Positions 5,392 to 20,000 of a DNA stretch of 20,000 bases are shown here, in pieces. The first letter of the stretch is position 1, and the number at the start of each line of letters is the position of its first letter. The position numbers and the translations under genes were made by a program. Below the pieces are notes generated by a model that was given only the letters and a program-made list of their open reading frames with translations, was not told the origin of the DNA and searched no databases. The DNA is from an uncultured virus (IMG/VR IMGVR_UViG_3300001242_000018). Lineage: Duplodnaviria > Heunggongvirae > Uroviricota > Caudoviricetes. The stretch spans positions 117,037 through 137,036 of IMG/VR virus record IMGVR_UViG_3300001242_000018, one strand, 5' to 3'.

Positions 5392-6126
5392 TCACCTGCC
5401 TAGTTTGTATGTTATAACCTTACCCGGATAGATCTTGCTCGGGTCTGGTATTGGAAATGGTGTATTAACACACTGTGTAGAGTATACAATACCTTTTGGT
5501 AACTCTATAAGTGATAACCATCCGCCAATGTCAGCCCCTGTATTGATACACATCTTACCTTTAAACATCCAAGGTCGGTGTTGTTTATCCCCTCTTAAAT
5601 GTATAGCTTCGTTATGACCGAATATTACAAGTTTAGGGATACCTGTCTCCTTATATAAGAAGTTGTTCGTACCCCAAACAAATTCCTCTGTTTGTTCGTT
5701 TAATGGCTTACTTACATCAAAGCCGGCATGACAGAAGAAATAATGTTCTAGCTCGAAAGTTAATGGCATATTAAGTAACCAATCACAATCTTCGGCAAGT
5801 TTATTAAGAGCATCTATTCCAAACTGATCAACATATGAACGTACTGTGGAACTTCCACCGTAGTTCTTAAAGTAGATGGTTTCCTCAAGAGTCCCTGTTG
5901 AATATGCATGTGCAGCTACTTCATGATTTCCTATCAGAATCTTAGCTCCCTCTTTTTCTAATTCACGGGCAAACTGTACCGTTTTATACGAATCCGGCCC
6001 TCTGTCGATAAGATCTCCAAGAACAATTAGAAGATCGTTTCTTGGGTTGTATCCTGCCTTTTCTAATAGTAGCTTCCAAGCGTACCAATGACCATGTATA
6101 TCTGCACAAGCAAATACTCTCTTCAT
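5392..6126 (-). CDS. PPP-family Ser/Thr metallophosphoesterase (lambda phosphatase-like)
   Basis: DIHG, GDLIDRG, GNHE, HAG, FGH motifs; start ATG 6126 with GAGGTG RBS and TAATG coupling to the sigma gene. Confidence 0.9.
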   Translation of the reverse strand: MKRVFACADIHGHWYAWKLLLEKAGYNPRNDLLIVLGDLIDRGPDSYKTVQFARELEKEGAKILIGNHEVAAHAYSTGTLEETIYFKNYGGSSTVRSYVDQFGIDALNKLAEDCDWLLNMPLTFELEHYFFCHAGFDVSKPLNEQTEEFVWGTNNFLYKETGIPKLVIFGHNEAIHLRGDKQHRPWMFKGKMCINTGADIGGWLSLIELPKGIVYSTQCVNTPFPIPDPSKIYPGKVITYKLGR

Positions 6127-6695
6127 TAAACCACCTCGTAGTACCATCGTTTCATTTTGTGCTTTATTCTCTGCATAGTATTGTCTACAGAACGATAAGA
6201 TCTACACAACTTCTCACCTATATCATTTATACCCATGCCCTGAATCATACATAGAGCTACCTGATACTCTAGGTCTGATAGTAAAACCTTGAGTCGTCTA
6301 TTGAATATCTTATCTTCTTCAGCTGTCAATACGACCTGTTCCGGTTCTACGCTACCTTCGTAGGTGTCTATACCTTCTACATCATACATACTAATCGCAT
6401 CATTTAAGGGTTTATATTTATTGCGATTAGAATGTCTGATAGTTTCATAGATCTGTCTACGCATAACCATTTTGCTAAACATGACGAAGTTATAGCCAGG
6501 TCGGTAATTCTCTATTGCTTTTACGAAACCGACTCTGGCTTCTTGAACTATATCTTCATTGGTGCCACCTGCTATGAAATAGGATTTTGCCACGGAACAT
6601 ATTAAATTGTTGTATTTAGTAAGAAGCCATTCCTGTGCATAAAGATCCTCTTTAGCAAGCACGGCTACAGATTCGATAGGAACCTGTGAATACAC
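6126..6695 (-). CDS. sigH: SigH-like RNA polymerase sigma factor
   Basis: LLTKY...AKSYFIAG...EDIVQE...RNKYKPLNDAIS...LSDLEYQV...SVDNTMQRIKHK closely follows the SigH pattern. Confidence 0.85.
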   Translation of the reverse strand: MYSQVPIESVAVLAKEDLYAQEWLLTKYNNLICSVAKSYFIAGGTNEDIVQEARVGFVKAIENYRPGYNFVMFSKMVMRRQIYETIRHSNRNKYKPLNDAISMYDVEGIDTYEGSVEPEQVVLTAEEDKIFNRRLKVLLSDLEYQVALCMIQGMGINDIGEKLCRSYRSVDNTMQRIKHKMKRWYYEVV

Positions 6696-7505: not shown

Positions 7506-8231
7506 TTACAACTTGGAGTACGCCAACAGTAGATCGTTATAAACATCTATATTGACTGTGGTAAAATCAGCACCGGTCTTACGGAGTACATACGCCGGAT
7601 GATATATTGGCATAACATTGTACTCTATATTATTCTGCCAATAAGAGCATAAAAGGCCGCGAATTTGTGTAATCTTAAGGTTCTTGCCAGGAAGGAGCGC
7701 ATTTAAAGCTACACCACCTACAGCTACAATAATCTTAGGATTAACCATTCTGATTTCTTCTTCCAGATACCTTTTTATACATGTAGTACACTCGTCTGTA
7801 GAGGGTGTTCGGTTATTAAGTGGACGACACTTTAATACATTTGTAATATAGACCTGCTCTCGTCTTAATGGCATTTTTTCAAGCCACATGGTTAAGGCAG
7901 CTCCAGCAATACCTGTAAATGGTAAGTTAAACATATCTTCATGCTCTCCCGGGCCCTCTCCGATAAACATGATAGGCGAACTAGGATTGCCGTATCCGTA
8001 TACCATACCAGTACCATATTCTTTAGAGATGTGACAATAATCGCATCTTTGTTTAAGAGCAGCGTGTCCACTTATTAAAGAGTGTTTCATTAAGGCTCCT
8101 ACCTTATGGACACCTATAGATACCGAAGCCTGACTGTAACCATTCTTAAGTAGTCTTTGACTAAAGTTATCTGTAAGATTCTTTATCAAGTCGATATTCA
8201 CTACTGATTGGTCGCTTGCTGTATTGACCAT
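7506..8231 (-). CDS. uracil-DNA glycosylase family 4 (4Fe-4S)
   Basis: CDYC, IGEGPG, PFTG, TNVLKCRP..NRTP, HPAY; GAGGAGG RBS. Confidence 0.92.
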   Translation of the reverse strand: MVNTASDQSVVNIDLIKNLTDNFSQRLLKNGYSQASVSIGVHKVGALMKHSLISGHAALKQRCDYCHISKEYGTGMVYGYGNPSSPIMFIGEGPGEHEDMFNLPFTGIAGAALTMWLEKMPLRREQVYITNVLKCRPLNNRTPSTDECTTCIKRYLEEEIRMVNPKIIVAVGGVALNALLPGKNLKITQIRGLLCSYWQNNIEYNVMPIYHPAYVLRKTGADFTTVNIDVYNDLLLAYSKL

Positions 8232-9163
8232 TCTTTTAGTCCTCCTCTTAAGTTAATGTTTCTACACTGCTTACAGTCACTCCAGGTAGCTCGATTACCG
8301 ATCTTCTTTTCAAATACTTCCGCAAATCTCTTATATCTTTCTAAATAATCTGCAAAATCACGTACCTCATTTATATTTGCGACAACCCCGCCACCGCCAT
8401 AACAACAGGGGCCAATATCGCCATTCCAATGAACTGTGAAAATTAGTTCATTTTGTTCAATATCTTGGACACCTCGTGATATAGAGCAAGTAGCATTTTC
8501 ACTAAAATCGCTATTAAATACTCCGGTTTTTGCCGCACGTCCAATAGGTAAAGCGACATTATGTGGCTTAAGTAATCGATTTAGATGGCTAATACCCTCA
8601 CCATGTAATTCTGAATCTATAAAAATACCGTAAGGATTATCTTCAAACCAGTATAGTACCTCTTCAAATCCGAATTTCTCAACCAGTTTCTCGTCTTCAT
8701 ATGGGTAATTTAAGAGTTCAGCAAGGTTTCGTAACAGAGTTTCCATATGTTTTGACCTGTACTTTTGATGCCAGATTGTATTACTAATTCGCATACTAAA
8801 TAGTTCCTGATAAGTTTCCATGAGTTTAACAACAAGTTCGAGTCTATCTTTCTTTAATACAAAAGAACCATTTGTACTAATAAAGATCATGGTATTATAA
8901 TCTTTTACCCTTCTACAGAGAATCTCGATTGCACGGTCTAGTACTTTGGGTACTAAGAAAGGTTCTCCACCAAAGAAGTTATAGTCTAATATAGGCGCGT
9001 CGTATACACTTATAGCTTCAGAGACAAGACGATTAATATTCCATATTGTTTCATCTGTCATAACACCTTTACAATTAGGTGAGCAATTGTAAAAACAATG
9101 ATCGCACTTAAAGTTGCAATTAATATTTGTCTGTACATTAACAGACATAGAATTTATATCCAT
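8201..9163 (-). CDS. radical SAM protein with C-terminal SPASM/twitch-like Cys motifs
   Basis: CNFKCDHC, GGEP, STNG, GRA, C...GDIGPCC...CKQC. Confidence 0.9.
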   Translation of the reverse strand: MDINSMSVNVQTNINCNFKCDHCFYNCSPNCKGVMTDETIWNINRLVSEAISVYDAPILDYNFFGGEPFLVPKVLDRAIEILCRRVKDYNTMIFISTNGSFVLKKDRLELVVKLMETYQELFSMRISNTIWHQKYRSKHMETLLRNLAELLNYPYEDEKLVEKFGFEEVLYWFEDNPYGIFIDSELHGEGISHLNRLLKPHNVALPIGRAAKTGVFNSDFSENATCSISRGVQDIEQNELIFTVHWNGDIGPCCYGGGGVVANINEVRDFADYLERYKRFAEVFEKKIGNRATWSDCKQCRNINLRGGLKEWSIQQATNQ

Positions 9164-9668: not shown

Positions 9669-9725
9669 GGAAAGTTTCCCTCCTATTCATAATTCTTTGC
9701 AAATATATATAGAAATTTTACCTTA

Positions 9726-10400
9726 TTAGGGCCCCACCGGTGCTATTACAGGTATCTTTTCTTTAACTACGCTACTGCCATTATAGATATTTACATCAAA
9801 ACATTTACTCGCTTGGTCGGCCAAGTATTGCTGATGTGTAACACCGTTTATCTGTATGTCAAATTCCTTACTAATAAACTGGATGAATTGACCTAACTTA
9901 ATAGCGAAGTTCTGACTAACCATCTTAGCGGGCTCATCAAGAATCATACAGCCATTTTGGGCCGGTTCCTTACAGAGTTTCTTGACAGCTACTTGTAGAG
10001 CAAATGCTACGATATCAACTACGCCGCCACCCATACTCTTTTCAGGCGAACTTTTGATAATCTTATTACCCAGCTCATGCTCAACGTAGAAGTGTATCTC
10101 AGGTTTACCCCGAGATTCTTTATGTTCAATGATTAATCTAAAATCCGGCCCAAAGGTGTGTTGTAATGCACTTGTTACGACAAGGGCTAGATTATCAGAA
10201 TACACTTTACGAGCTTCATCGGTAGTATCCTGGAGTACCAGACCTATAGCTTCAAAGTCTGCAATGGAGACCTTATCTTCAAGAACGGATTTATCCAGAG
10301 ATACAATCTGTTCTTCAATGCCTTTCTTTTCACCTAGACGGCTGTTGTAACTTGCTTTTAATTGTTCAAGCTGCTCTTTTAAATCTATAGTAGATATCAT
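9726..10400 (-). CDS. Rad50/SbcC C-terminal half (coiled coil + ABC signature, Walker B, H-switch)
   Basis: N-terminal heptads, SMGGGVVD signature, MILDEP, VTHQ; no Walker A. Confidence 0.85.
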   Translation of the reverse strand: MISTIDLKEQLEQLKASYNSRLGEKKGIEEQIVSLDKSVLEDKVSIADFEAIGLVLQDTTDEARKVYSDNLALVVTSALQHTFGPDFRLIIEHKESRGKPEIHFYVEHELGNKIIKSSPEKSMGGGVVDIVAFALQVAVKKLCKEPAQNGCMILDEPAKMVSQNFAIKLGQFIQFISKEFDIQINGVTHQQYLADQASKCFDVNIYNGSSVVKEKIPVIAPVGP

Positions 10401-10423
10401 GAGCGTATGTCTCCTTTAACACT

Positions 10424-11008
10424 CTAGAATGGAAAATCCATTACAGAGTTTTTAGGTTGCAAGGTTGAATCACCTTCAGTAGGAGGAGTTAGATTCGGGA
10501 GTGGCCAACTCGATACACCTGCAACGGATTCCGGTAAAGGTGAGTTCTCCTGAGACCCTCCTTGTGTAAGAAAACTATCAAAGGTTGGGTGTTGTTGCTC
10601 TGGCAACATATACTCTTCTCCCGTTATAGGAATATTGGGTAAAGACTGTCCACTTTCACAAAACTCTTGCATTACCGGTGGTACATGTTCTTGCATTACC
10701 AGTTGTTGAGCTACTTGCTGCACAGGTTGTTCTACCGGTGTTTGTACGGGTTCCGGTGTATTAAACACTGGAGGCTCTATCTGCTTACCAGTCAGTACGT
10801 CAGATACATATTGCTTCAGCTGATCTCGTTTCTGAATACGTTCATCTCTCTCGGCCTGTAGGTTTTGATAGTTATAACCCTTAGCCGATACTCTATTGAT
10901 CAGTTCCTGATACTGGTTCTGCAGATTGTTCAGGTTCTCCGTCAATCTCACTTCTTGGAGCTGAATTTCCTGTACCTGCGCTTTTAGCTGTTTCAATGAT
11001 TCGCTCAT
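10424..11008 (-). CDS. coiled-coil protein with disordered P/Q/E tail ending DFPF
   Basis: GGGAGGAG RBS; about 70 aa of heptads then a low-complexity tail. Confidence 0.8.
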   Translation of the reverse strand: MSESLKQLKAQVQEIQLQEVRLTENLNNLQNQYQELINRVSAKGYNYQNLQAERDERIQKRDQLKQYVSDVLTGKQIEPPVFNTPEPVQTPVEQPVQQVAQQLVMQEHVPPVMQEFCESGQSLPNIPITGEEYMLPEQQHPTFDSFLTQGGSQENSPLPESVAGVSSWPLPNLTPPTEGDSTLQPKNSVMDFPF

Positions 11009-11627
11009 GTAGTAACTCCTCCCTTTTCTTTCTTACCAAGTTCATGATAAGTGCTGATACTTTTTCACGAGTCTCTGTAGTTTCGATAGGATTGTCACCA
11101 ACCTCATCCCTAATGGTTGTCAGAATATCTTCATGAATATTCTGTACTTCACTAGGTAATACCAGAGAGTTTGTTTCAATCCATTCTTGAATAAACAAAA
11201 GCATAATCTGCCTGGTTTCTTCGGTGTCTGGATACTCATAGAACACAAGATTCATTAAGTCTGCAAGATTCTTTAGTTTATCTTGCAAGTGTACTGGGAA
11301 CTTGGTTTTAATAAGTTCAAACTTATCTTGACCATCCCACTTAATGAAGCCAGGATCTTTATATTTCGTTATCCAACGGCACACCTCGCGCTCTATTTCT
11401 CGTTTTACCTGCCTAGTAAGACGAGAATCACGGTACCTCATTCGTAAATTACCAGCCAGCTGAGCGGCGTAACGGCGCAGATTAAATGGTAAACTCTCTG
11501 CATCAATTTCAATGGTTACACCATTACCATCCTCGGTAGGTATAAAACGAACGTGTCGCTGTATCTGTCTAGGTTTAACCTGAGGAGCTATTTGTTTAAC
11601 TGCACCCGGCCTAGTTTTATTATCCAT
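10893..11627 (-). CDS. hypothetical protein inside the split sbcCD locus
   Basis: 244-aa ORF abutting the upstream stop; overlaps the next gene by 116 nt. Confidence 0.75.
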   Translation of the reverse strand: MDNKTRPGAVKQIAPQVKPRQIQRHVRFIPTEDGNGVTIEIDAESLPFNLRRYAAQLAGNLRMRYRDSRLTRQVKREIEREVCRWITKYKDPGFIKWDGQDKFELIKTKFPVHLQDKLKNLADLMNLVFYEYPDTEETRQIMLLFIQEWIETNSLVLPSEVQNIHEDILTTIRDEVGDNPIETTETREKVSALIMNLVRKKREELLHERIIETAKSAGTGNSAPRSEIDGEPEQSAEPVSGTDQ

Positions 11628-14090
11628 TTATCTTACCCCCGTTACATTATCAAGTATTAGTGCTATCCGGGCATCGTCTAGGATACTAAAACACTCACCA
11701 CATACCTTAGCTTCTCTTAGGGAAGCTGTATAAGTATCTCTTATTCTTTTAGATGCTGTTATAGTATCTGAGAGATTACTTTTGGTAGTGTTAATATGAG
11801 TGTAGATGGTAGATATATCTCTTTGAAATATATCAATCTCTTCGATCTGTGGATTCAGCTGCTCGGCCAGAGATAGATAGTCAGAGAGTCCATTAGTATT
11901 TGGTATGTTATTAAGACTTTGTTGTACCCGAACCATCTCTGATTGTAGATGCTCTGACTGTGATATAAAATCAGTAAGCTCTTTTATATCATCCTCAAGA
12001 GGTAATCCTTGGTCTATAAGATCGAGTAACCCTGTTATATTAGGCAAGGAAGCTTGTGTTTCTTGATATCCCTGGATATATTTATTCAGGGTGAGACTTT
12101 TGTCAAGAGCTTCGTTAAGCCATGCAACTTCTACATCTATATCACTAGCGTTATCCAGTAGAACTAAGAGTTTAGCTGCATCGATAGCTTTAATACGTTT
12201 TAATTCAGCGTCACTTGTAGCTATATTGGTATTCATTGCTGTAAAGTCTTTTATTGCTTGGTCTATATCTTGGACTGTATTTGTAAGTTCTTCGATAACA
12301 TCGATACCGACGGTAGCCGAAGCGATCTTTGTTTCCATATCAGATAGATCGGTAAACGTACCAAGTTTATTTATAAAATCACTTACTATCTTTTCTTTTT
12401 CCTTGATACCTTTTTGTATACCGGCAATACCTTTACTATTTTCTCTGATAGCTACGTCGAATGCATCAAGTCCGGCTAATGTACCAATTATAGCTGCCCG
12501 GATAGATGGACTTTCAGACAATAAGAATGGAGCGTCAAGTTGCTCGGAAACTGAAAGGTTTATACGCTTATCTTTAGCTAAGATAACGTCCGGCATTTGG
12601 TGTACGTTAAGTACTTCAATTGGGATTTGATGCCCCCACTTAGTAAAGTCATATACTTGCTTGCCATCAAAAACCTTTAAGGTACCGGCAGCCGACCTAG
12701 TTCTCTCACGTTCAATCCAGGTACCATCATCATAGTAGATTTTACCACGGGTTTTAGATTCACCAAGTTTTATAAAGTCAGCACCTTTAGGATCGTCAAA
12801 GCATACCCAGCGAACTAACCTTATAATAACGGATTTGCCATTATTACTTGGCCCGACAAACATATTCGTTTCAGGGTTAAGATCGATTACCGTATTACTG
12901 TGACTCATGAAATTCTCGATCTCGATACGAGTAATACGCTTGGTATAACCACAATCTACATATCCCTGTAACTTTTGTGTTACCTGAGCATGTAATGCGT
13001 CGGCATCACTTAGCATCTTAAGACACTTAGTTAAACAACCTGCCTTACTAGCCTTTTCATTTAAGATCTTCATAACATCATACGGCTTAATATTAGCAGT
13101 ATTAGCTAAACTTTGTCTAAAATTACTTAGAAAATTACTCTTAGCTTTCTTTTGTACATTGGTGTTAAAATCGAATACATCTATACCGGGTTGAGCTGAT
13201 TTAAACTCTACGAAGTTTTCTTTCCAGCCATTCTTATCAAACTCCAGGATAGTCATACCTGGTATTCTGGTTTGTACATCTACACTGGCAGAGTTTCTAC
13301 CCATACTACCGTTGTTAATGATAAACGGATTGTTCTTACTTTGCATTGTCTTAAAACCAGGATGATAATGTCCTGCACATATGATTGCAGGATATGGAGT
13401 ATTACTTGCAGGAATATCGTCTGCTAATACATAATCCATATTCGGTGGCCCTGGTTTATCCAGAATGTTACCATGTACAAAGAGAACGTGGTACTGTGCT
13501 GAGAGATCTATATCTACGATATACTTATCCGGATTCTTATCTACATCAGGTGTAAACTCCTGTCCCTGAATTGATACTACCAGTCCATCATTAGTTTTAC
13601 AGGTTGTAGGAGTGGCTCTGGTTAATAGATTAAACACTCCGGCTTTTGCTAATAAACCAAGTGTTGTTTTATTGATATTTTGCATACTGTAACCAAAGAT
13701 ATCGTGATTACCTGGTACAACCACCATAGGACAGAGATACTCTTTCATAATTCCTGCAAATAAGCCGGAGATCTCATTATCAATACGAGGGCCGTCAAAC
13801 ATATCACCTGTATGTACAAGTAAATCAATTTGATAGGTCTGAATAAGTTCTCCAACTTCCATGTACTTCTTTAGAAGGGCTACAATGTAATCATCCTTCC
13901 GAGATTTAGGGTTAGTTTCTCGGATGTGAGTATCATTGATAACTCCAATCTTCAAATTAGTACGTCCCTGAATATTAGGACACCCTTCTATACCAGCTTC
14001 GATTAATTCTTTTTCAAATTGCTCATCACTTACGCTAGGTAAATGTTCGGTTAAATCTTTTGTTATTTCTTTTAAATCCACACATTTCAC
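11628..14090 (-). CDS. Mre11/SbcD nuclease fused to the Rad50/SbcC N-terminal ATPase half, ending at a zinc-hook CxxC
   Basis: NDTH, TGD, GNHD, HG, GHYH phosphoesterase motifs; IENFMSH, Walker A GPSNNGKS, Q-loop, coiled coil, CGEC near the C-terminus; start may be GTG 14081 or TTG 13955. Confidence 0.9.
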   Translation of the reverse strand: MKCVDLKEITKDLTEHLPSVSDEQFEKELIEAGIEGCPNIQGRTNLKIGVINDTHIRETNPKSRKDDYIVALLKKYMEVGELIQTYQIDLLVHTGDMFDGPRIDNEISGLFAGIMKEYLCPMVVVPGNHDIFGYSMQNINKTTLGLLAKAGVFNLLTRATPTTCKTNDGLVVSIQGQEFTPDVDKNPDKYIVDIDLSAQYHVLFVHGNILDKPGPPNMDYVLADDIPASNTPYPAIICAGHYHPGFKTMQSKNNPFIINNGSMGRNSASVDVQTRIPGMTILEFDKNGWKENFVEFKSAQPGIDVFDFNTNVQKKAKSNFLSNFRQSLANTANIKPYDVMKILNEKASKAGCLTKCLKMLSDADALHAQVTQKLQGYVDCGYTKRITRIEIENFMSHSNTVIDLNPETNMFVGPSNNGKSVIIRLVRWVCFDDPKGADFIKLGESKTRGKIYYDDGTWIERERTRSAAGTLKVFDGKQVYDFTKWGHQIPIEVLNVHQMPDVILAKDKRINLSVSEQLDAPFLLSESPSIRAAIIGTLAGLDAFDVAIRENSKGIAGIQKGIKEKEKIVSDFINKLGTFTDLSDMETKIASATVGIDVIEELTNTVQDIDQAIKDFTAMNTNIATSDAELKRIKAIDAAKLLVLLDNASDIDVEVAWLNEALDKSLTLNKYIQGYQETQASLPNITGLLDLIDQGLPLEDDIKELTDFISQSEHLQSEMVRVQQSLNNIPNTNGLSDYLSLAEQLNPQIEEIDIFQRDISTIYTHINTTKSNLSDTITASKRIRDTYTASLREAKVCGECFSILDDARIALILDNVTGVR

Positions 14091-14094
14091 CGCC

Positions 14095-14454
14095 TTAGTA
14101 GTAACGATCTTCTTCTGTAAATAAACCCGGGTTAGGAAACTTTGCTAATTTACCAAAGGTATCATGCAAGCTATATTTACTTGCAGTTTCGGATATTTCG
14201 ATTACATATACATCTGGATAGAACCGTTGGGCATCTCGGATATCTTTACAGTATTCGTCTAGAAAAGCTAAATAAGCGGCATTAGAATCGATAGCATCAT
14301 AAGTACCCATCACGGAGAATAATTCTCCAGGTACTAATTTATCAACAGCTCTTTCATATGGTCTCGCTGTGACTATAAACTTCTTTAACTTTGGTTCTGG
14401 TTTATATCCACCGCAGCTTGGCAATTTGCTATCAAGATATTTGTAGTAACTCAC
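14095..14454 (-). CDS. hypothetical protein
   Basis: GTG 14454 after GGAGGAG RBS (track start 14481). Confidence 0.7.
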   Translation of the reverse strand: MSYYKYLDSKLPSCGGYKPEPKLKKFIVTARPYERAVDKLVPGELFSVMGTYDAIDSNAAYLAFLDEYCKDIRDAQRFYPDVYVIEISETASKYSLHDTFGKLAKFPNPGLFTEEDRYY

Positions 14455-14458
14455 ATGC

Positions 14459-14962
14459 TTACTCCTCCCTATATGCTTCAAGTGTTCTTATACCAAACTT
14501 AATAGCTTTTCCACGACTAGCAAAACAAATATCTATTTTGTTACGTTTAATAGCACCACCAGTATCTTCAACGATAAACCGTCCTTTATTCGGGTAGTTA
14601 GATAATGCAGGGATAACTATAATAGTACCCGGTAACAAGAAACTTGGATGCGCTGCTATTGTAGTCAATCCAGTAACCGGGTCAGGTTTTTCGATGGGCT
14701 TTACTTTTGTACCATTCTTAGTTATACCACGACCATCCATACCAGGATCGTTTTTAGTATAAGCCGTAGCTACAACCTTAAATGTTTTTCTAATCTCCGT
14801 TTTAACTTCCGTAACCTTTACATCCTGTATAGGTTTCGATACAGGTATTAATTTCGGAGCCGATATCGAAACCGTATGTTTAATAGGCTGTTCGTAAAGG
14901 TAGCTTGGGAAAGTAATCAGAGAAAATAGTACAAAAGCTAAAAGCCACATACGATATATCAA
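14459..14962 (-). CDS. secreted or membrane-anchored 3D-domain (MltA-like) cell-wall protein
   Basis: hydrophobic N-terminus; ATAYT, GITKNG, EDTGGAIK..KIDI. Confidence 0.88.
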   Translation of the reverse strand: MIYRMWLLAFVLFSLITFPSYLYEQPIKHTVSISAPKLIPVSKPIQDVKVTEVKTEIRKTFKVVATAYTKNDPGMDGRGITKNGTKVKPIEKPDPVTGLTTIAAHPSFLLPGTIIVIPALSNYPNKGRFIVEDTGGAIKRNKIDICFASRGKAIKFGIRTLEAYREE

Positions 14963-19338: not shown

Positions 19339-19628
19339 TATTTATCAGCCTCCAACATCCCCTTAATTGTTACAAGCGTATTCTTTACAGCCATACCTTC
19401 GATTCCAAGTCCCTTCGCCTGCTTTAAGGCAGTATTTAATAAGTCGAACATTCGAGACTTGTCCATCTTTACAGGCTTATTGTTTGAGTAAGTTTCTGAT
19501 AAATCATTTAAGTCCTGACTAACCTTTAGTCTAGCATCCTCCTTTGTGAGGCCTGTCTGTATATAAGCCTCACAAAGGTAGATAGCCATCTGGTTAAGTC
19601 CTGATTTAGACTGGTTTACAGGGTTCAT
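19338..19628 (-). CDS. hypothetical protein
   Basis: TAATG coupling upstream; abuts recA. Confidence 0.7.
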   Translation of the reverse strand: MNPVNQSKSGLNQMAIYLCEAYIQTGLTKEDARLKVSQDLNDLSETYSNNKPVKMDKSRMFDLLNTALKQAKGLGIEGMAVKNTLVTIKGMLEADK

Positions 19629-20000
19629 TAAAACGGTAAAGTCGGGTCTGTCGGGCCACCCGGATAACCACCCTGCTGAGCCGGATTAGGAGCGGTTTGC
19701 GGCTGTTGAGCAGGTTGCTGGTACGGTTGAGCAGGCTGCGCCGGTTGTTGATAAGGCTGTTGATACGGCTGAGCCGGTTGTCCTTGCTGTACAGGTTGCT
19801 GACCGGGTTGTTGATAAGGCTGCTGAGCCGGTTGCTGATACGTTTGTTGTGCAGGTTGCTGACCGGGTTGCGGAGCAGGCTGCTGATAAGGTTGTTGGTA
19901 CTGCTGAGTTTGCTGAACCGGCTGTTGTACAGGTTGCTGTGCCGGCTGTTGGTATGGCTGCTGTACAGGCTGTTGAGTCGGTTGCTGATAAGGTTGTTGG
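19628..20000 (-). CDS. 3' part of a probable single-stranded DNA-binding protein (partial)
   Basis: open frame from the window edge; Q/P/Y low-complexity linker ending GGYPGGPTDPTLPF*, an SSB-type tip; two genes upstream of recA. OB fold lies outside the window. Confidence 0.65.
   Translation of the reverse strand, partial: QQPYQQPTQQPVQQPYQQPAQQPVQQPVQQTQQYQQPYQQPAPQPGQQPAQQTYQQPAQQPYQQPGQQPVQQGQPAQPYQQPYQQPAQPAQPYQQPAQQPQTAPNPAQQGGYPGGPTDPTLPF
19675..20000 (-). repeat. degenerate 12-nt coding tandem repeat encoding QQP[Y/A/V/G/T]
   Basis: repeated CAG/CAA CAA/CAG CCN NNN units. Confidence 0.9.

Follow-up and report, generated by a model that had tools for sequence, protein, structure and literature searches.

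A probable Mre11-Rad50 enzyme of a giant phage, with its nuclease fused to the first half of a Rad50 that is cut at the zinc hook

Rad50 and its SMC (structural maintenance of chromosomes) relatives are made as one chain that folds back on itself, with a long coiled coil linking the ATPase head to a distant hook, and the feedback of hook continuity and arm length on the head is still debated. In canonical systems SbcC/Rad50, like gp46 of phage T4, is a single chain separate from the nuclease. A group of genes in an uncultured virus raises the question of whether such an enzyme can instead be cut at the hook and joined to its nuclease at the other end. The genes occupy positions 9726-14090 of a 20,000-nucleotide stretch (the window, analysed as a whole), which is the last 20 kb of the 137-kb virus record IMGVR_UViG_3300001242_000018 (record completeness estimate 61%; guanine-plus-cytosine (GC) content of the window ~38%). 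An earlier note, made from the sequence alone, had read them as a Mre11-Rad50 (SbcCD) system of this kind. We found that all catalytic parts of a Mre11-Rad50 enzyme are present and conserved here, spread over three proteins, and we consider it likely that the four-gene block encodes a Mre11-Rad50 (SbcCD) DNA-end-processing enzyme of a giant phage, with its Rad50 in separate proteins. Four consecutive open reading frames (ORFs) on the minus strand, of 820, 244, 194 and 224 residues, fill the interval, and their parts are as follows.

11628..14090, minus strand: piece 1, the 820-residue fusion of an Mre11/SbcD nuclease with the N-half of Rad50/SbcC (N-lobe, arm, zinc hook); from Pfam, PHROG and profile matches
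13191..13955, minus strand: Mre11/SbcD phosphoesterase domain, residues 46-300, motifs I-V; from motif positions and conservation
12939..13190, minus strand: linker, residues 301-384; from conservation and alignment to unfused SbcD ORFs
12447..12938, minus strand: Rad50/SbcC ATPase lobe I, residues 385-548; from motifs and Rad50 profile matches
12831-12854, minus strand: Walker A GPSNNGKS, residues 413-420; motif
12534-12548, minus strand: Q-loop SEQLD, residues 515-519; motif
11703..12446, minus strand: helical arm, residues 549-796, about five tandem repeats of ~50 residues; from hhalign self-alignment
11631..11702, minus strand: zinc-hook motif CGEC (11691-11702) with a 20-residue tail; the stop is at 11628-11630
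10893..11627, minus strand: 244-residue ORF, no assigned family; its ATG abuts the piece 1 stop codon (TAAATG)
10424..11008, minus strand: piece 2, the 194-residue small subunit; from a small-ORF hidden Markov model and synteny
10775-11008, minus strand: helical core of piece 2, residues 1-78
10451-10774, minus strand: P/Q-rich linker of piece 2
10427-10450, minus strand: C-terminal tip of piece 2, ...NSVMDFPF
9726..10400, minus strand: piece 3, the 224-residue C-half of Rad50/SbcC, a proximal helix (residues 1-70) and ATPase lobe II; from phrog_15167 and Rad50 C-chain profiles
10023-10034, minus strand: MGGG at the signature position, residues 123-126 of the 224-residue protein; motif
9930-9947, minus strand: Walker B MILDEP, residues 152-157 of the 224-residue protein; motif
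9831-9842, minus strand: H-loop VTHQ, residues 187-190 of the 224-residue protein; motif

Piece 1 carries the nuclease and the first half of the ATPase in one chain. The earlier note had placed all five Mre11/SbcD motifs on one 820-residue ORF reading into a Rad50 N-lobe without a stop, with Walker A at 12831-12854 and CGEC at 11691-11702 about 20 residues before the end; every motif was found at a named residue, and both sets of coordinates match exactly. The ORF at 11628-14090 starts with GTG and runs for 820 residues without an internal stop. Scans of each ORF with hidden Markov models (HMMs), which the earlier note had proposed as a check, assigned Pfam Metallophos to residues 46-244 (expectation value, E, 2.5e-14, above the cut-off) and AAA_23 to residues 388-597 (E 6.7e-12) of this one chain. 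The best PHROG match was phrog_16465 'exonuclease' on residues 385-786 (E 3.6e-52), accompanied by weaker SbcD-like and SbcC-like families. The five phosphoesterase motifs read NDTH (residues 52-55), HTGDMFD (93-99), GNHD (127-130), VHGN (205-208) and GHYH (240-243). A word-indexed protein search returned 26 proteins at E<=0.001, from which 20 were aligned and six left out; 24 of the 26 hold Metallophos and AAA_23 in one chain of 712-820 residues, and GNHD, H206 and GHxH of the nuclease as well as G418, K419 and Q517 of lobe I are invariant in all 20 aligned fused relatives. The profile of this alignment matched Mre11/SbcD structures (3qg5_C at 4.2e-9, 2q8u_A at 4e-8, 1ii7_A at 7e-8 and the SbcD entry 6s6v_A at 9e-5) over only about its first 88 positions, and Rad50 N-lobe chains at E 1.4e-15.

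The nuclease is not free-standing: an 84-residue linker, in which L321 and F324 are conserved at >=90% in the fused-protein alignment, joins it in frame to Rad50 lobe I. The alignment of unfused SbcD ORFs from related loci extends to query residues ~320-360, and the linker is the counterpart of the helical C-terminal end of the free-standing SbcD proteins in this family; we infer that it serves as the Rad50-binding region. At the far end of the chain CGEC occupies residues 797-800 and the stop comes 20 residues later. C797 and C800 are invariant in 20/20 of the aligned fused relatives, each of which ends 11-22 residues past CxxC. We also observed an NCBIfam match to 'TrlF family AAA-like ATPase' on residues 383-788 (E 2.8e-11, profile positions 287-696 of 944), far below the cut-off.

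The remaining half of the ATPase is encoded elsewhere. As the earlier note had claimed, the lobe with the signature, Walker B and H-switch lies on a separate 224-residue gene, and two ORFs (10893-11627 and 10424-11008) stand between it and piece 1. The 224-residue protein matched phrog_15167 'ATPase' at E 6e-43; as a single sequence it matched solved structures weakly (E 0.07), and NCBIfam Rad50 PRK01156 at positions 801-892 of 895 (E 7e-5, below the cut-off). The profile of the C-half alignment matched the C-terminal chains of Rad50 (3qkr_B at 4.9e-16, 1ii8_B at 1.2e-15 and 1f2t_B at 9e-13). Within the same two-chain Rad50 entries (1f2t, 1ii8, 1us8 and 3qkr), chain A was the match for the N-half and chain B for the C-half. 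Among 27 C-halves, D155 and E156 of Walker B are invariant (27/27), H189 is conserved at >=90%, and so is the GG of the signature position; the serine of LSGG is not kept. Among the listed C-halves of at least 250 residues, three, P0111 (locus L014, 267 residues), P0118 (279) and P0046 (285), have an N-terminal extension of 54-71 residues, and the 267-residue protein of L014 aligns with positions 668-954 of a full-length SbcC profile.

We next consider whether the layout is real. Across 9700-14100 no difference was seen in contigs from two runs of one study, which is a possible source of this DNA. In a run from a second study 13 contig pieces matched at >=99% with zero substitutions and zero indels (4/30 bins had no cover), and one of them, 11468-11792, runs through the hook, the stop codon and the start of the next ORF. 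Because the contigs of both studies are unchanged across the region, an artefactual stop or frameshift is excluded. The 820-residue protein is also recorded on a contig of 220 kb. Taken together, these results confirmed that the fused-and-split layout is natural and neither chance nor an assembly error.

The same cut is found well beyond the window. A scan of viral contigs gave 43 loci, 31 of them with a separate C-half ORF, and each of the 33 N-half ORFs (window included) keeps the Walker A lysine and stops 3-23 residues past CxxC. In a wider set of 71 N-half rows, in which the window protein is counted twice and a few others are possibly near-duplicates, CxxC lies within the last 45 residues in 71/71, in the form CPxC in 62. 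The residues after CxxC include no Cys or His in 21 rows (the window among them), one in 20 and two or more in 30; tails with one extra residue are mostly of the CPCC...H kind, and those with two or more carry HxH, CxH or H...C. The canonical Rad50 zinc hook is a half-site shared between two chains. Since extra Cys or His residues occur in 50/71 tails, many members of this family could bind zinc with four ligands from one chain.

A profile of 27 C-half sequences, run against 1.84 billion representatives, gave 19,246 matches at E<=1e-3, 4,635 at 1e-10 and 2,393 at 1e-30; the best 150 of these 2,393 clusters are all 190-308 residues long. At E<=1e-30 the profile separates such proteins from canonical SbcC (160-190 versus 33-38 bits in three test genomes), and at this threshold a stand-alone C-half was found in 55 of 401 genomes sampled from one bacterial phylum, where 57 of the 58 C-half open frames are 155-282 residues long. 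A query of the phBC6A51 type found 19 loci in Bacillota genomes, including Bacillus, Brevibacillus, Paenibacillus, Sporomusa, and Lachnospiraceae and Clostridia metagenome-assembled genomes; all four genes are present in 17/19, the other two loci being cut by contig ends. The hook-split Rad50 operons that the earlier note mentioned for some Clostridia fit these loci. In five chromosomal loci (L066-L070) SbcD, the N-half, the small protein and the C-half are all present, flanked by RecA- and RNase Y-sized ORFs, in the order recA-recX-sbcD-N-half-small-C-half-rny (RecA, RecX and RNase Y were confirmed by Pfam in L066 only). In 5/5 of these loci there also follows a downstream 252-residue ORF and then an 86-residue ORF ending ...AIKLIVEPR.

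In prophage phBC6A51 and phage vB_BboS-125 the cut is present without the fusion. Ordinary genes lie between the pieces in other loci (sbcD, a sliding clamp, a PD-(D/E)XK nuclease, NrdD and NrdG), and for this reason the pieces behave as independent genes of long standing. The clamp, of the DnaN type, sits between the small subunit and the C-half at L032:9543-10739, L033:9698-10819 and L038:10400-11599, on GC-rich phage contigs that also have the PD-(D/E)XK nuclease between sbcD and the small subunit. A search for longer C-half relatives returned only P0027, a distant whole SbcD-SbcC fusion (1025 residues, E 4.8e-6), and no close unsplit relative on which the cut could be mapped. The hook split is old and widespread.

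The fusion is a separate matter. In a tree of lobe I (32 rows, 11 of them fused) the fused rows stand on one side of a branch with support 98/90, and the nearest row is L016 (support 100/98), whose unfused sbcD overlaps the start of the N-half gene by four bases. By this placement and the layout of L016, the cut is ancestral and the fusion was a single later event from the L016 gene order. The fusion arose once, in a clade that includes Bacillus phage 0305phi8-36; in relatives outside that clade SbcD is unfused.

What, then, are the two ORFs between the halves? The earlier note had counted both as possible subunits of a three- to four-subunit machine; this held for 10424-11008, a conserved small helical subunit, and did not hold for 10893-11627, which has no relative in the loci examined. 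In the viral loci a helix-loop-helix ORF of 75-115 residues nearly always lies directly upstream of the C-half. We built an HMM from the small ORFs of related loci, 23 in all, of which 22 immediately precede the C-half (the exception, gp7 of 0305phi8-36, is separated from it by gp6). The top match of this small-ORF HMM in the window was the 194-residue ORF (E 4.1e-7, residues 1-53; next ORF E 0.022). Relatives of the small subunit belong to phrog_18563, a family of unknown function, and together with the HMM match they identify the 194-residue ORF as the conserved third piece; the ORF itself gave no match to phrog_18563 at E<=0.01. The same HMM weakly matches the N-termini of many C-halves (E ~1e-4), which may reflect coiled-coil composition. 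Comparison by hhalign of the small core or the proximal helix with the arm found nothing (probability 7% and 4%), and of the small core with the proximal helix gave a weak match (probability 34%). Ribosome-binding sites precede pieces 2 and 3, and a strong one, AAGGGAGGAG, lies ahead of the piece 2 ATG at 11008. An alternative gene call (Atlas) places the start of the 194-residue protein at residue 20, but both the alignment and the ribosome-binding site point to the ATG at 11008. Atlas gave no usable match for the 194- or the 244-residue ORF. The two share 115 nucleotides (10893-11008) in different frames, and the overlapping tail of the 244-residue ORF is of low complexity.

After its helical core the 194-residue protein continues with a P/Q-rich stretch of ~110 residues and ends ...NSVMDFPF, and its closest relatives end ...EDVPF (L012) and ...NNALSF (L004). 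Bacterial single-stranded DNA-binding protein (SSB) has a disordered linker and an acidic C-terminal tip. L012 holds a homologue of SSB in the same locus as its small subunit (L012:48-593 and L012:8440-8760), and this homologue ends ...EEDERVPF; its Pfam SSB match (E 1.7e-5) is just under the cut-off, and 16 phage records match it, of which 12 listed are annotated SSB. In the window a 5'-open ORF adjoining recA (19628-19999, minus strand, its N-terminus beyond the record) is likewise P/Q-rich and ends ...DPTLPF; a Pfam scan of it found no family, which leaves it a candidate SSB. With such a tail the small subunit seems to mimic the C-terminal end of SSB and, speculatively, may tie the enzyme to the SSB interaction network.

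The 244-residue ORF matched no family in Pfam, PHROG, NCBIfam or PADLOC, had no phmmer match across the 43 viral loci, and is unlike the ORFs at the equivalent place in relatives. Those ORFs are mostly unrelated to one another and include DUF1653, DUF1292, an AP2-annotated protein and gp6 of 0305phi8-36. The 244-residue ORF is probably lineage-specific cargo and not part of the machine.

We then asked how the arm is built. The earlier note had proposed a coiled coil assembled in trans, with which the lengths measured in the window do not agree. Rad50 is not one folded-back polypeptide here, the returning part being on two other genes. Self-comparison of the arm profile by hhalign gave off-diagonal alignments at shifts of 47-54 residues (E 3.4e-11, probability 97%) and ~103 residues (E 8e-6); the off-diagonal score was 79.0, compared with maxima of 10.9 in 30 column shuffles and 16.9 in 30 shuffles of seven-column blocks. 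Measured between the end of lobe I and CxxC, arm length varies in steps (~105, 147, 197, 230, 250-265 and 297 residues). Across 21 loci the arms are 142-297 residues long, against a near-constant 137-166 for small core and proximal helix together. In eight loci with ~250-residue arms (window included) the arm exceeds the returning pieces by 93-104 residues; in seven loci with arms of 142-160 residues the arm equals small core plus proximal helix within -19 to +11 residues. Bacterial prophage-type loci have CxxC at residues 419-507 of N-halves of 434-520 residues, which implies longer arms, and small proteins of 75-85 residues. A relative without any arm was also seen: L071:8152-10254 (minus strand) encodes a single 700-residue chain of SbcD, lobe I and lobe II with a joint of ~40 residues and no hook, and this chain matches the fused-protein profile at E 7e-100.

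Several of our observations weigh against the block encoding a divided Mre11-Rad50 enzyme. The window arm of ~252 residues is opposed by returning pieces of 149 residues, an excess of 103, and a simple two-stranded coiled coil restored in trans does not fit because the arm exceeds what returns. Over the 21 loci arm length and returning sum have a Pearson r of 0.21 (p 0.36). The window's hook reads CGEC and departs from the prevailing CPxC, and the signature motif of the 224-residue protein is MGGG, the usual motif of ATP-binding cassette (ABC) proteins being LSGG. The profile of the small protein matched only generic coiled coils among solved structures, and the homology of that protein consequently rests on synteny and a modest HMM score. 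We tentatively propose that the arm might be a rod of a variable number of 50-residue helical repeats and not a folded-back coiled coil, and that the DFPF tail could join the SSB network. If so, the outer >=100 residues of the arm would stand alone or pair with the arm of a second molecule under the hook, an undescribed way to build an SMC-like arm.

These findings bear on several other explanations of the locus. A stop 20 codons past the hook, with the remaining ATPase 1.2 kb downstream, has the look of a disrupted gene, so the block might be an SbcC interrupted by assembly or sequencing errors beside a false sbcD fusion; the identical second-study contigs, the fusion in 24/26 relatives, the cut in 33/33 N-halves, the invariant or nearly invariant catalytic residues in both halves, the start of each piece with its ribosome-binding site ahead of pieces 2 and 3, and thousands of stand-alone C-halves leave that explanation practically no weight. 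A genuine split could still be a recent one, made by a mobile or selfish 244-residue ORF that landed at the hook-coding site, as in fractured genes. In favour are its lack of conservation, its position right at the break and its 115-nucleotide overlap with the next gene; in addition, vB_BboS-125 has the AP2-annotated protein at the same place (Pfam AP2 5.6e-5, below the cut-off), and the available text of Dassa et al. 2009 (PMC2677866) describes an SbcD-like gene split by a Vsr-like endonuclease ORF. Against this, the cut exists without insertion in L005, L009, L011 and L013, where only the small ORF lies between the halves, it occurs in every lineage of the tree and on bacterial chromosomes, the genes between the pieces elsewhere are ordinary replication genes, and Pfam found no nuclease or intein domain in the 244-residue ORF. 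Because the cut occurs without insertion and in all lineages, the cargo is probably secondary to an old split, and we regard a recent split as improbable. The pieces might also be rejoined into one chain, after translation by a split intein or by recoding through readthrough or frameshift; the TAAATG junction between piece 1 and the next ORF and the overlap of the two middle ORFs would suit this. No intein or Hint family was found by Pfam in any piece, however, the 3-23 residues past CxxC are too few for an N-intein, and readthrough is ruled out as a general mechanism because the order of the pieces varies and sbcD, clamp and nrd genes lie between them, so that rejoining is about as negligible as an artefact.

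Two further alternatives accept the pieces as natural and separate and differ on what they make. In one, there is no Rad50-like ring: the arm is a self-contained repeat rod or pairs with that of another piece 1 molecule, a short separate stalk is built from the small protein and the piece 3 helix, and the protein is an ABC head with a novel arm. The tandem 50-residue repeats, the stepped arm lengths beside returning pieces that stay near 150 residues, the prophage-type loci with CxxC at 419-507 and small proteins of 75-85 residues, the armless L071 chain and the extra Cys or His in 50/71 hook tails all favour it, whereas the seven loci with 142-160-residue arms match a fully paired arm and the window's hook has, like that of canonical Rad50, just the two-Cys half-site; we hold this alternative to be unlikely, with a real minority chance of being right. 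In the other, the genes encode an anti-phage defence or counter-defence ATPase-nuclease of the PARIS AriA, Lamassu LmuB, Gabija GajA or OLD kind. PADLOC does match AriA (E 2.3e-10, residues 386-775), and LmuB, Old and GajA on residues 385-430. These matches are to the generic P-loop N-terminus, except AriA (269/373 positions) and a weak JetC (E 7.9e-4, residues 558-800), and none covers a full-length defence profile; the nuclease is of the Mre11/SbcD type, Rad50 and Mre11 come out best in the profile matches to solved structures, no partner genes were found, the neighbours include RecA, a helicase and a primase, and the bacterial version lies between recA-recX and rny. A defence function is accordingly very improbable.

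A divided Mre11-Rad50 enzyme therefore remains our preferred account, and its parts would work together as follows. Lobes I and II would join non-covalently into one nucleotide-binding domain, as in the crystallised two-chain Rad50 heads, with the small protein and the N-terminal helix of piece 3 packing on the base of the arm. ATP would engage two such assemblies, whose arms would meet via the zinc hook, and the tethered nuclease would trim or open DNA ends for RecA-dependent recombination and replication restart, in the manner of T4 gp46/gp47.

Elsewhere in the window we found RecA, a UvrD-type helicase, a primase, a uracil-DNA glycosylase, MazG and NrdG, neighbours in keeping with a role in recombination and replication. 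No observation bore on host DNA degradation, the alternative role put forward in the earlier note. A radical SAM/SPASM-like protein, for which both Pfam matches are below the cut-off, adjoins the glycosylase, which is of the family-4 type (8201-9163, 7506-8231, minus strand), and the same minus-strand run contains a second Metallophos protein and a sigma-70 region 2 protein (5392-6147, 6126-6695). Between the UvrD-type helicase and the nuclease fusion, at 14459-14962 (minus strand), lies a 167-residue protein whose N-terminus is hydrophobic and which contains a 3D domain (E 1.9e-9); it resembles cell-wall-acting proteins despite its place within the run of recombination genes. A promoter and terminator scan of the window gave no sites above shuffles, and no operon boundaries were drawn.

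The family amounts to a natural experiment on hook continuity: it combines a cut at the hook, a return in two pieces, changes of arm length by whole repeats, an armless relative and a tethered nuclease. It is not rare: phages both giant and small carry it, as do prophages, it occurs beside recA, and roughly one of every seven genomes sampled from one bacterial phylum has it. Its small, separately expressible parts lend themselves to structural and biochemical work. Annotations can also be corrected: 'chromosome segregation ATPase' or 'ATPase' is the usual label of the C-half, and 'hypothetical' that of the small piece.

The earlier note would have counted it as a refutation if this exact architecture were already widespread and described. 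It is widespread, and its fusion is already in print, while the hook split is apparently undescribed: the literature searched for a hook-split Rad50 or SbcC, with few subscription journals covered, held no description of one. Yoshida, Claverie and Ogata 2011 (PMC3175470), in the text available, list the 0305phi8-36 protein A7KV18 among Mre11/Rad50 fusions of the Mimivirus R555 type and state that for the Bacillus phage one P-loop segment 'was not observed', from which it follows that gp5 was missed; the fusions treated in that text mostly hold a whole Rad50, as P0027 does, and a separate C-half and a cut at the hook go unmentioned there. The accessible part of Hardies 2007 gives only the label 'DNA repair exonuclease' for 0305phi8-36, and that of Iyer et al. 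2021 reports SbcC and SbcD as near-universal in jumbo phages and mentions no split. Fractured genes, as presented in the available text of Dassa et al. 2009, resemble our case in that essential phage DNA-metabolism enzymes lie in separate ORFs that need reassembly; they differ in that they involve a homing endonuclease, often split inteins and a recent event, whereas the window has no intein, an old cut and dispersed pieces.

Among known systems, Bacillus phage 0305phi8-36 has the same layout: gp8 (769 residues) shares 32% identity with piece 1 over residues 44-764, gp7 (99 residues as an ORF, 92 as annotated) aligns with the small subunit, and gp5 (236 residues) shares 40.6% with piece 3. In the phage record these carry the labels 'exonuclease', 'hypothetical' and 'ATPase'. 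It differs by an extra ORF, gp6 (238 residues), between the small subunit and the C-half, which is unrelated to the 244-residue ORF of the window. Measured against canonical Mre11-Rad50/SbcCD (P. furiosus, M. jannaschii, E. coli and T4 gp47/gp46), the window has in common the five-motif nuclease, the ABC head, the CxxC-ended arm and the recombination context; it differs in that Rad50 is cut after the hook and again in the returning part, that the nuclease is fused to the N-terminus of Rad50, and that the arm is a series of tandem 50-residue repeats longer than the returning pieces. The two-chain Rad50 constructs (1f2t/1f2u, 1ii8, 1us8 and 3qkr) are laboratory truncations without most of the coiled coil and the hook. 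Like them, the window would form its head from separate N and C polypeptides; unlike them, its split is natural, the arm and hook are kept on the N piece, and a third small protein is added.

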